From positions 1 to 55,232 of the forward strand of contig CP066690.1 of assembly GCA_016432465.1 (NCBI GenBank): a stretch of DNA of 55,232 bases, written 5' to 3'. The number at the start of each line of letters is the position of its first letter. Positions within the stretch are counted from its first letter, which is position 1. Made by a program: the position numbers and the translations under genes. The notes beneath the pieces are model-generated. The model saw only the letters and a program-made list of their open reading frames with translations, did no database searches and was not told where the DNA came from. Source of the DNA: Candidatus Sungiibacteriota bacterium (GTDB lineage: Bacteria; Patescibacteriota; Minisyncoccia; Sungbacterales; HO2-52-23). Shown piece after piece: positions 17,722-54,914 of the stretch.

Positions 17722-18798
17722 ATGAGTCTTAAAATCGGCATAGTCGGTCTACCTAACGTTGGCAAGTCCACCCTTTTTAACGCTTTAACCAAGAAAAAAG
17801 TTGATATTTCTAATTACCCTTTTTGTACTATTGAGCCGAATATAGGGATTGTGGAAGTGCCTGATTTGCGTCTGGAAAAACTGGCTGAAATATCGCATTC
17901 CCAGCGGATTATACCAGCGGTGGTTGAATTTGTGGATATTGCGGGATTAGTAAAGGGCGCGGCTGAAGGTGAAGGACTGGGAAATAAGTTTTTATCACAT
18001 ATACGCGAGGTTGACGCGATTGCCGAGGTGGTACGCGTCTTTAAAGATAAGGATATTATCCATGTTGCCAATGCCGTAAATCCGGTTTCGGACATTGAAG
18101 TATTGGAATATGAACTAATCCTCAAGGATTTAGAAACCACCCAGAACCGCCTCGCATCATTACAAAAAGAGGTCAAGGCGGGGGAAAAAAGAGCGGCGGA
18201 AGAATTGGAGCATCTGCAAAAAGTTGCCGAAGAGCTCAAAACCGGCGCTATACAACATACCAACAAACTTGAGTTTGTTGGTATGTTGACGAATTTAGGG
18301 TTATTAACTGCAAAGCCGATTGTTTACGTCTTCAATGCGTCGGAGAAACAAGTACAAGAGAAGTGGGAGCCGGATCAAAAATTGAAAAACAAAATCGGCC
18401 CGGCATCATACGCGGTTATTTCTGCCAAGATTGAGGCGGAGCTTGGGGAATTAGCTGAGGAAGAGAAAAAAGAATACCTAAAAACCCTCGGGCGGGATGA
18501 GAGTGGACTGGATCAGTTGATCCGCGTTGGCTACGAGACATTGGGGCTCATCACTTTTTTTACAACCGGGGAGGATGAAACCCGCGCCTGGACTATTCCC
18601 AAAGGATCTCTAGCTCCGAGGGCAGGACGCGCTATTCACTCCGATTTTGAAGATAAATTTATCCGGGCCGAAGTAATTAATTGGCAAAAATTGGTTGAAG
18701 CCGACTCTTGGTCTCGCGCCAAAGAACTCGGCCTGCTCCGGCTAGAAGGAAAGGAATATGTCGTTCAGGATGGGGATGTGATGGAATTTAAAATTTGA
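17722..18798 (+). CDS. ychF: Ribosome-associated ATPase YchF
   Basis: GIVGLPNVGKSTLFN, NYPFCTIEPN, DIAGLVKGA, YVVQDGDV. Confidence 0.98.
   Translation: MSLKIGIVGLPNVGKSTLFNALTKKKVDISNYPFCTIEPNIGIVEVPDLRLEKLAEISHSQRIIPAVVEFVDIAGLVKGAAEGEGLGNKFLSHIREVDAIAEVVRVFKDKDIIHVANAVNPVSDIEVLEYELILKDLETTQNRLASLQKEVKAGEKRAAEELEHLQKVAEELKTGAIQHTNKLEFVGMLTNLGLLTAKPIVYVFNASEKQVQEKWEPDQKLKNKIGPASYAVISAKIEAELGELAEEEKKEYLKTLGRDESGLDQLIRVGYETLGLITFFTTGEDETRAWTIPKGSLAPRAGRAIHSDFEDKFIRAEVINWQKLVEADSWSRAKELGLLRLEGKEYVVQDGDVMEFKI
18253..18288. repeat. Palindromic element (family B) in frame in ychF, encoding QHTNKLEFVGML
   Basis: Perfect 17-bp arms CAACATACCAACAAACT/AGTTTGTTGGTATGTTG with a 2-nt loop; exactly 12 codons. 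Confidence 0.9.
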
Positions 18799-25520: not shown

Positions 25521-25620
25521 TTTATCCACGCACCAGCCGCCAGAGGCGAGCCTCGCTTGTGGCGGGAAGACCACGGGCTCGGGAAGTCAGACTTCCCATG
25601 GGAAGTCTGACTTCCCGTGG
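25521..25620. repeat. Family A repeat followed by a perfect 36-bp tandem palindrome (GGGAAGTCAGACTTCCC family D)
   Basis: 25521-25551 is 30/31 identical to 44779-44809; 25581-25616 is a perfect palindrome. Confidence 0.85.
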
Positions 25621-25624
25621 GGCT

Positions 25625-35805: not shown

Positions 35806-35832
35806 GGAAGTAAGCTCTTGGAGAGCGCCCTT

Positions 35833-35849
35833 GGGAAGTCAGACTTCCC
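35833..35849. repeat. Family D palindrome GGGAAGTCAGACTTCCC
   Basis: Same as the units at 25581-25616; variant at 39709-39725. Confidence 0.75.
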
Positions 35850-35948
35850 TTACTAAAGGACTTTCTCCAAGGGATAAATCTCTCAATAAATAACTACTTT
35901 TTAGTTTTTACTATTTTAATTTAACCGTCTTAAAAATATTAAGGAGGC

Positions 35949-39694: not shown

Positions 39695-40306
39695 CTACTC
39701 GGCAGCAAGGGAAGTCTGACTTCTCAAGCTGCCGCGTTTTCTGTCGGACGAAAGATAAAACCGCCACAATTTATTCTTCCAGAGACCTGCATACTCCACC
39801 CCTATTCTTTTTCCTCGCCTGATTTGGCGGGGATTTATGTTAGTGCCGCGATCCTCAATCCAAAGGCCGCTCGTTTTTATTGCGGGTTTTCCGTTGAAAC
39901 GTTTATTAATTTTGAAACAGCGGCATACCTTTCCCGGTCCAATGATATGTAATACCCCAACATTCTCAAGTTTGTTGGTGTGTTGTGATGGAATGACTAC
40001 CGAACGCACCAATAAGGCGGCGGGGTACCCCTTTCTTTCGGTCACGATATTAAGACAGTGGTGTATTCCGTAAATAAGATAAACGTACCAGCATCCCGGC
40101 TTGTCAAACATTACTTTAGTTCTCTCAGTCTTTCCGCGGGAAGCATGCGAGGCCTTGTCTTTCGGTCCCACATACGCTTCAACTTCTGTAATCATACCCG
40201 CGACAGTTTTTTTACCTATTTTCCGCACCAAAAATTTACCCAATAATTCTTGGGCAACTTTAAGCGTAGGACGGTTAAAAAATGTTGGCAAAAGAACTTT
40301 TTTCAT
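39695..40306 (-). CDS. mpg: 3-methyladenine DNA glycosylase (MPG family)
   Basis: FFNRPTLKVAQELLGK, ITEVEAY, YVYLIYGIHHCLNIV, GPGK, RIGV. Confidence 0.93.
   Translation of the reverse strand: MKKVLLPTFFNRPTLKVAQELLGKFLVRKIGKKTVAGMITEVEAYVGPKDKASHASRGKTERTKVMFDKPGCWYVYLIYGIHHCLNIVTERKGYPAALLVRSVVIPSQHTNKLENVGVLHIIGPGKVCRCFKINKRFNGKPAIKTSGLWIEDRGTNINPRQIRRGKRIGVEYAGLWKNKLWRFYLSSDRKRGSLRSQTSLAAE
39950..39985. repeat. Family B element in frame in mpg, encoding QHTNKLENVGVL
   Basis: 29/36 nt identical to the ychF copy. Confidence 0.85.
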
Positions 40307-53882: not shown

Positions 53883-54027
53883 CCCCGCCCTAAAGGGCGG
53901 GGTTTTCTTCAGACGAACTTCGTTCGTCTTCAGAAAATCGCCCTGGTGATCGGCCTCAAGCGGGGTTTCTCCTCCGCTTCGCTCCGGGCTGGCATTCAAC
54001 CCCGCGTCTTGCGGGGATGAATGCCAG
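53883..54027. repeat. Second composite of IS200/IS605-end-like hairpins
   Basis: CCCCGCCC-TAAA-GGGCGGGG (53883-53902) and CTGGCATTCA-ACCCCGC-GTCTT-GCGGGGA-TGAATGCCAG (53989-54027). Confidence 0.55.
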
Positions 54028-54872: not shown

Positions 54873-54914
54873 TAATTAAAATACATCCCGACCGGTCGGG
54901 ATGTATTTTAATTA
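54873..54914. repeat. Perfect 42-bp palindrome (possible terminator of the tRNA-Tyr transcript)
   Basis: TAATTAAAATACATCCCGACC|GGTCGGGATGTATTTTAATTA. Confidence 0.85.

Follow-up and report, generated by a model that had tools for sequence, protein, structure and literature searches.

Why should a ribosome-associated ATPase and a DNA repair glycosylase carry the same short peptide, encoded by the same DNA palindrome? The question arises in a 55,232-nt stretch of Candidatus Sungiibacteriota bacterium (assembly GCA_016432465.1, contig CP066690.1, positions 1 to 55,232, forward strand), which was analyzed whole and is called the window below. A first-pass annotation of the window had pointed to a perfect palindrome with 17-bp arms filling exactly 12 codons of ychF, and to a copy in mpg sharing 29 of 36 nucleotides and read in the same frame; both observations are borne out by the window sequence. 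The ychF copy (18253-18288) reads CAACATACCAACAAACT-TG-AGTTTGTTGGTATGTTG, with 17-nt arms that are fully complementary around the TG centre, and encodes YchF residues 178-189 (QHTNKLEFVGML). The mpg copy (39950-39985, minus strand) reads CAACACACCAACAAACTTGAGAATGTTGGGGTATTA in an identical codon phase and encodes MPG residues 108-119 (QHTNKLENVGVL); it is imperfect, pairing at 12 of its 17 arm positions.

The hosts are ordinary housekeeping genes. ychF (17722-18798, plus strand) encodes a redox-regulated or ribosome-binding ATPase of 358 aa (Pfam MMR_HSR1 and YchF-GTPase_C; PDB 1jal, E = 1e-104), and mpg (39695-40306, minus strand) a 3-methyladenine/methylpurine DNA glycosylase of 203 aa (Pfam Pur_DNA_glyco, E = 3e-56; human AAG structures, E = 1e-28). 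Both proteins have their closest relatives in Candidatus Sungbacteria and in further Patescibacteria.

We consider it very probable that the two copies belong to one dispersed palindrome family. No match to the 36-mer with three or fewer mismatches was found in 100 dinucleotide-preserving shuffles of the window, and a profile of the family recovers within the window only the ychF copy (E = 9e-10) and the mpg copy (E = 2e-8), the next best hit having E = 5. The window sequence is also present in contigs from independent public groundwater runs (the public runs that hold it are all DNA, none RNA). In these contigs depth is about 20-fold higher across 18262-18297, and contigs with unrelated flanks start, stop or diverge at 18254 and at 18287/18288, which are the borders of the element. 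The rise in depth and the contig breaks thus give independent confirmation of both the borders and the repeat nature of the palindrome.

The family was delineated by scanning one genome per prokaryotic species with the pattern AYNCCAACANNCTNNAGNNTGTTGGNRT, which both window copies fit; about four chance matches were expected, and at least 120 loci were recovered. Among the matches listed, nearly all hosts are Patescibacteria from many classes, together with several metagenome-assembled genomes (MAGs) of Verrucomicrobia and Kiritimatiellia in which the match lies on a long contig. The consensus is (C/A)AACATTCCAACATTCT-NN-AGAATGTTGGAATGTT(G/T), and its information content falls to zero immediately beyond 36 nt; both window copies have the family core (C/A)AACAYNCCAACANNCT-NN-AGNNTGTTGGNRTGTT(G/T) with the same sharp borders at about 36 nt. 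Each arm consists of two tandem AACATTCY octamers. Of the centre dinucleotides, TG or CA accounts for 66 copies, GC for 43 and TA for 12, and hybrid arms carrying T-T or A-A mismatches are common.

Most copies are intergenic, with flanking genes in all orientations and no convergent bias, and 22 of 130 sampled copies (about 17%) lie well inside long open reading frames (ORFs). Translated copies fall in three frames, reading HSNILxNVGM (17 copies, a stop-free frame), TFQHSxECWNV (5) or NIPTFxRMLEC (2). The in-frame hosts confirmed by Pfam are TsaD, TrmD, PGK, ArgRS, UvrC, class II aldolase (FBA), GluRS, PrmC, a GT4 glycosyltransferase and YgjP, and their Pfam alignments exceed the profile by 15-20 residues at the position of the palindrome. 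The peptide shared by YchF and MPG thus owes nothing to kinship between the proteins, as the first-pass annotation had supposed; what is shared is a family of DNA palindromes spread over many loci, three frames and noncoding DNA. No Rfam family matches it, and the searchable literature yielded no paper with the palindrome sequence or with the pairing of Patescibacteria, ArsR and a palindrome.

The family has a recurrent partner gene. At several loci two palindrome copies 340-390 bp apart enclose a conserved ORF of 92-100 aa, the product of which is a winged-helix protein of about 95 aa resembling ArsR/SmtB (weak matches to Pfam HTH_5 and MarR, NCBIfam HTH_metalloreg, and HlyU, ArsR and CadC in PDB, all below curated cut-offs). 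Metal-sensing residues were not identified in it, and PADLOC reported only a generic winged-helix similarity to Csa3/CARF tails. The protein family is large (at least 2089 protein clusters). The gene is present at 31 of the 120 loci listed (tblastn), with a palindrome almost always directly upstream and often downstream as well, and no other gene recurs as often among the 231 ORFs that lie within 300 nt of a copy; these 231 ORFs include no recurrent nuclease, transposase or integrase. The gene neighbourhoods around the unit of one gene and two sites are not conserved. The only other recurrent neighbour is a PIF1/RecD-like helicase gene, which adjoins the winged-helix gene at 4 of 27 loci (L004, L012, L030, L054).

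Upstream of the winged-helix genes, a promoter layout overlies the palindrome in 17 of 25 regions. At sites centred on CTTGAG, the -35 box (TTGAGA) comes from the centre and the spacer of 16-17 nt from the right arm, beyond which a TATAAT-like box lies 6-7 nt ahead of the ATG; six loci (L030, L069, L082, L084, L105, L111) have exactly TTGAGA-16-TATAAT at this distance of 6-7 nt. Judged by sequence, the dyad over the promoter of the winged-helix gene has the layout of a leaderless, self-repressible promoter. Site and protein also vary together: the recognition helix KTISEH is paired with CATTCCAACATTCT sites, and KT[IL]GEH with CATACC or CCTTAC...AAACT sites, a pairing that also fits an independent Sungbacteria locus (L211) with a winged-helix gene and flanking sites. 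Both window copies have counterparts among these sites. The ychF arms (CAACATACCAACAAACT) are the same as those of a site 7 nt upstream of the winged-helix gene at L067, and the centre and inner arms of the mpg copy (ACCAACAAACTTGAGAATGTTGG) match the sites upstream of the winged-helix genes at L104 and L111. The palindrome is most likely the binding site of the winged-helix protein.

Four MAGs from the Planctomycetes-Verrucomicrobia-Chlamydiae (PVC) superphylum (L031, L050, L052, L018; Kiritimatiellia and Verrucomicrobia, 55-60% GC) share the AT-rich palindrome, together with a winged-helix gene of host-like GC, and PVC copies include one in frame in prmC and another within a 709-aa ORF. The pair is thus not limited to the candidate phyla radiation (CPR), and an AT-rich site persisting in GC-rich genomes beside a gene of host-like composition argues for constraint by the protein. 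A variant winged-helix gene (P0328; L215-L218, 10001-10300) lies directly after dnaX and has a degenerate upstream site (ACATCCTTATAAACTTGAGTATATTGGGTTGATG), so a perfect palindrome is not kept by every partner gene.

The history of the ychF copy was followed in 120 YchF relatives. The palindrome peptide is present in 33 of them and is patchy on the tree, where well-supported branches force at least seven state changes and parsimony counts 17. In the five syntenic ychF orthologues (the window and L121-L124), where the gene order is pgm-ychF-rpsF-ssb, the same codons are occupied in every case by a perfect palindrome with arms of 17-19 bp, and the sequences of these palindromes differ. L121 is identical to the window at 36/36 nucleotides, against only 49% identity at third codon positions elsewhere; the other three orthologues are identical to the window at 18-27 of 36 nucleotides. 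L122 (TCCTCTATTCTAATGTTCT-TG-AGAACATTAGAATAGAGGA) shares 18/36 and is more diverged than the gene around it, and L123 and L124 read CAACACCCTTACAAACT-GG-AGTTTGTAAGGGTGTTG and AAACATTCCAACATTCTG-CAGAATGTTGGAATGTTT, respectively. Symmetry is visible at the protein level too: 27 of 32 motif-bearing YchF peptides are fully palindrome-compatible (2000 shuffles: mean 10.7, maximum 18), the paired residues being H-M or Y-I; S/T-G or S/P-R; N-V, N-I, D-V or Y-V; and I-N, V-N or K-F. Perfect palindromes of differing sequence, together with palindrome-compatible peptides, indicate that the dyad is under active maintenance even as its sequence changes or is replaced by other variants of the family. A metagenome scan with YchF returned mostly distant YchF proteins of other phyla and three close relatives, none of which has the palindrome. 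A recurrent LLKSHFN loop in other YchF relatives was considered as a further palindrome and rejected, the arms in the L131 DNA being only 5 bp long.

In MPG the palindrome sits in an added segment, residues 104-122 (VIPSQHTNKLENVGVLHII; 39941-39997, minus strand), defined by an alignment of the 120 best relatives and by the DNA of an empty site (L125). The segment counts 19 residues and its equivalent in basal relatives 4, which makes MPG 15 aa longer here, and on alignment grounds it appears to be implanted DNA plus flanks. The short form RSV-E-GVK-GPG (170-172 aa; basal variants RSV-E/G-xVK-GPG) is found in 55 of the 120 relatives, the palindrome family in 17, one of which (P0168/L127) reads it in another frame as TFQHSQECWNV, and other inserts at the same spot in 48. 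At the DNA level, L126 and L127 have perfect palindromes with 22-bp arms, and L128 and the window copy are imperfect. The MPG tree, with only 12 well-supported branches and a family label that clusters no better than in shuffles, is too poorly resolved for gains to be counted. Some of the other inserts in the loop (P0133, P0136, P0137, P0164, P0176; seen at the protein level) back-translate to palindromes, for example TYQRPLIS to ACTTATCAGCGGCCGCTGATAAGT, which suggests that the MPG loop may be a hot spot common to several hairpin families.

Within the 3' end of mpg, 39704-39728 is a palindrome of a second family (GGGAAGTC-N-GACTTCCC), to which the stretches 25578-25621 and 35830-35854 are related. 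The mpg palindrome encodes an extra C-terminal tail (...RSQTSLAAE) that shorter MPG relatives do not have, so mpg seems to carry two different palindrome-derived segments.

These comparisons qualify the proposal that a dispersed element had inserted into both genes and that alignment with relatives would reveal clean 12-aa indels. A true extra segment exists in MPG; against solved YchF structures YchF has no insertion, and its palindrome peptide falls in a variable loop. Neither gene has a clean 12-aa indel: MPG gained 15 aa, and the YchF loop was partly replaced with a net gain of 5 to 7 aa. A filled and an empty YchF sister (L209/L210, 80% identity) differ by 7 aa, and the borders between them are not clean. 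The mpg copy had been read as the older one, an age that the comparisons do not support. Its right arm had been read as decayed, which holds for the three outer mismatches, these being decay-like, and not for the inner AAACT/AGAAT asymmetry, which is the usual form upstream of G-type winged-helix genes and is common to several MPG orthologues (HTNKLENVG).

Both copies lie where a protein might accept extra residues. In the AlphaFold model of YchF (mean pLDDT, the predicted local distance difference test score, 80.6), residues 180-190 score below 50 and form the only internal low-confidence loop, which joins the coiled-coil helices to strand 200-205. In the MPG model (mean pLDDT 88.8), residues 109-116 are the only internal stretch below 50, in a coil between strands 96-105 and 119-122. 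Because both peptides fall in such low-pLDDT loops, the added residues are likely to be tolerated.

We think it reasonably probable, if far from certain, that the palindrome is an ArsR-type winged-helix binding site implanted in permissive, disordered loops of proteins. The ychF and mpg stretches would be copies of a dyad-symmetric site of about 36 bp tied to the winged-helix protein of about 95 aa, a dimer of which, or a dimer of dimers, would bind the palindrome. Intragenic patches would be copied from other copies by recombination or template switching, with no transposase; in ychF and mpg the patch, whether added or taking the place of other DNA, falls in a surface loop predicted to be disordered. 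Symmetry would be kept by two forces together, selection on the half-sites by the dimeric protein and arm-to-arm correction by template switching. The least certain step is that winged-helix protein bound within ychF and mpg would bring these genes under the regulator, serving as a roadblock or an internal operator. Any regulatory role of the intragenic copies is doubtful, and those in ychF and mpg may simply be tolerated.

Two observations touch on what the window copies could do. At the mpg copy, a promoter-like match (TTGAGA-16-TATCAT; 39942-39969, minus strand) takes in the palindrome centre and the 3' flank, with the right arm spacing them, in the layout seen at winged-helix gene promoters elsewhere. 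It is a consensus match only, at 10 of 12 positions, and is not significant (one site vs. 0.4 expected in shuffles). The ychF copy, if bound by the winged-helix protein, could act only as a roadblock.

Several results weigh against a binding site implanted in loops. The link between protein and site, as read from the sequences, is one of adjacency and of covariation confounded by phylogeny, and tblastn found no winged-helix homologue in the 55-kb window. The mpg copy may no longer bind, owing to its 5/17 arm mismatches, and no promoter- or terminator-like feature was found at the ychF copy. A strong -10 box at the correct offset is present in only 13 of 123 copies, so that a promoter is not evident at most solo copies, and the idea of such a box at a fixed offset as their general feature was rejected on this count. 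Comparisons of filled and empty sites gave no insertion mechanism, target-site duplication or clean border of the kind expected of a miniature inverted-repeat transposable element. Finally, in 35% of copies (2% expected) the arms stay symmetric for at least 3 bp past the conserved core, through bases specific to each copy; a protein footprint does not explain this, which points to hairpin or template-switch dynamics.

The alternative that survives best is a selfish mobile element of the kind represented by repetitive extragenic palindromes (REPs) and their hairpin-forming doublets (REPINs), or by Rickettsia palindromic elements (RPEs). The winged-helix protein would then be a host silencer, or a partner like the REP-associated tyrosine transposase (RAYT), rather than a regulator of host genes, and the window copies would have no function. 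We judge this unlikely, although much of the distribution described above is what it predicts. MPG has an added segment, with the palindrome in a second frame in one relative and other inserts in the same loop in many; the YchF distribution is patchy; the source metagenome contains the palindrome in high copy number; and the unit of one gene and two sites turns up in neighbourhoods that are not conserved. Copies lie in many unrelated housekeeping genes, and their frame bias (17/5/2) is as expected from selection against harmful peptides. A selfish element is at odds, however, with a sole partner that is a noncatalytic winged-helix protein, no recurrent nuclease, transposase or integrase standing beside the copies, with borders that are neither clean nor marked by target-site duplications, and with a site embedded in what looks like a working promoter of the partner gene. 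Nor would a dead relic be conserved at 36/36 nucleotides across saturated synonymous sites, or stay symmetric in 5/5 ychF orthologues.

A bolder reading goes further. The winged-helix protein and its palindrome would form a self-propagating pair of an undescribed kind, a portable promoter-operator copied without a transposase, by hairpin or template-switch repair, into new places, permissive loops of essential genes among them. The perfect palindrome would be kept by arm-to-arm correction, the site would recruit the protein as an intragenic brake, and YchF 176-190 and MPG 104-122 would have been colonised repeatedly and independently. We regard this as speculative and quite unlikely.

Much less probable is an RNA hairpin acting in the mRNA (pausing translation between domains, offering an RNase site, or serving as stabiliser or attenuator), with the partner gene a coincidence. 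The ychF copy does fold very stably (-23 kcal/mol, z = -8.1) at a domain boundary of YchF, and symmetry continuing past the conserved core would suit a stem; the sense strand of the mpg copy, in contrast, folds no better than shuffles (-6.4 kcal/mol, z = -0.7). Intact arms are strictly Watson-Crick, without tolerance of G-U pairs or preference for a strand, centres are found in either orientation, and the T-T and A-A hybrid arms are frequent, all of which speak against selection on RNA pairing, as do the prevalence of intergenic copies and the variety of gene orientations around them. Neither the ychF nor the mpg copy has the GC-rich stem and T run of an intrinsic terminator, the stem being AT-rich, and the Rfam search gave no family. 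Chance, or a convergent QHTNKLE-like protein loop, has nothing in its favour but the shortness of the match and is already refuted by the shuffles and by the recurrence of the same DNA at the scanned loci in three frames and in noncoding DNA, which leaves it a negligible probability.

If an implanted winged-helix binding site is the correct reading, a near-invariant site with a dedicated partner would be a candidate regulatory or genome-organising system spanning a superphylum, in CPR bacteria that have very few regulators and in which the control of genes is almost unknown. Essential enzymes would then also be shown to accommodate short protein-binding palindromes, just as the far larger RPEs are accommodated in Rickettsia. 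The ychF orthologue series amounts to a natural experiment, in which the palindrome changes about as fast as synonymous sites do and stays perfectly symmetric; it can therefore separate selection on a dimeric site from templated arm-to-arm correction. For annotation, when a peptide such as HSNILxNVGM, TFQHSxECWNV or NIPTFxRMLEC turns up in unrelated CPR proteins, it should be taken for the footprint of a DNA element and not for a protein motif.

Other palindromes were noted in passing. Two copies of the long palindrome TTGTACACTTAAAAGCGATCGCTTTTAAGTGTACAA (GCGATCGC centre) at 538-573 and 1164-1191 of the window, 586 nt apart, bracket a gene, a layout like that of the bracketed winged-helix gene, yet they belong to a different palindrome family. 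A scan tolerating one mismatch found a perfect palindrome with 21-bp arms and no loop at 54873-54914, and another with 17-bp arms and a 5-nt loop at 53989-54027. In Sungbacteria relatives, an intergenic palindrome family built on CGAAT(A/G)TACGAA|TTCGTA recurs between housekeeping genes (L121: 4100-4127 and 12531-12566; L124: 4588-4611, 5140-5165 and 6442-6467).

How does the element compare with known systems? RPEs are dispersed palindromes found in frame in many unrelated housekeeping genes, where they encode a conserved peptide at tolerated positions (PMC10969869). The element described here resembles them in its in-frame presence in many unrelated genes at positions that the fold tolerates. 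It differs in size and host range: RPEs are about 100-150 bp long, encode a peptide of 30-50 aa, occur only in Rickettsia and are not known to have a protein partner, whereas the present element has a 36-bp core encoding 12 aa (up to about 45 bp with copy-specific symmetric flanks), occurs across a superphylum and in PVC bacteria, and forms the promoter of a winged-helix gene.

REPs and REPINs are palindromes of 20-40 nt, many per genome, with a single-copy RAYT gene that is flanked by repeats, and the repeat variant and its partner covary. Short palindromes in many copies, a flanked partner gene and covariation of site and partner are all features of the present family. The RAYT partner, however, is a Y1 (HUH) transposase, and among the neighbours at the matches listed the partner here is a noncatalytic winged-helix protein; REPs are extragenic, and here the intragenic minority includes both window copies.

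The process by which quasi-palindromes are corrected offers a different kind of comparison, in that template switching perfects imperfect inverted repeats and lengthens the identity of their arms (PMC7202029, PMC3820800). It would explain perfect arms with fast turnover, as well as symmetric flanks specific to each copy. It is, however, a mutational process and not an element, and it leaves the same core in hundreds of places unexplained.

The ArsR/SmtB family is the closest relation of the partner protein itself. SmtB, CzrA and CadC, and the nonmetal members HlyU and NolR, are autoregulated repressors with 12-2-12 inverted-repeat operators. The likeness lies in a small winged-helix protein of this family and in a dyad with a 2-nt centre over its own promoter. 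The site here is longer (17-2-17), near-invariant across phyla, placed on both sides of the gene and copied into coding sequence; to our knowledge, a long invariant site, two-sided placement and coding copies have not been described for known ArsR/SmtB members. A site that overlaps the promoter, as an operator would, is seen here at the winged-helix genes, but not at the window copies, both of which lie in mid-gene. Conserved palindromic sites inside genes are otherwise familiar from parS, the palindromes bound by ParB, which can lie in coding sequence across phyla, number few per genome and arise by substitution in existing codons. In the present family, by contrast, extra codons have been added, and the partner is ArsR-like.

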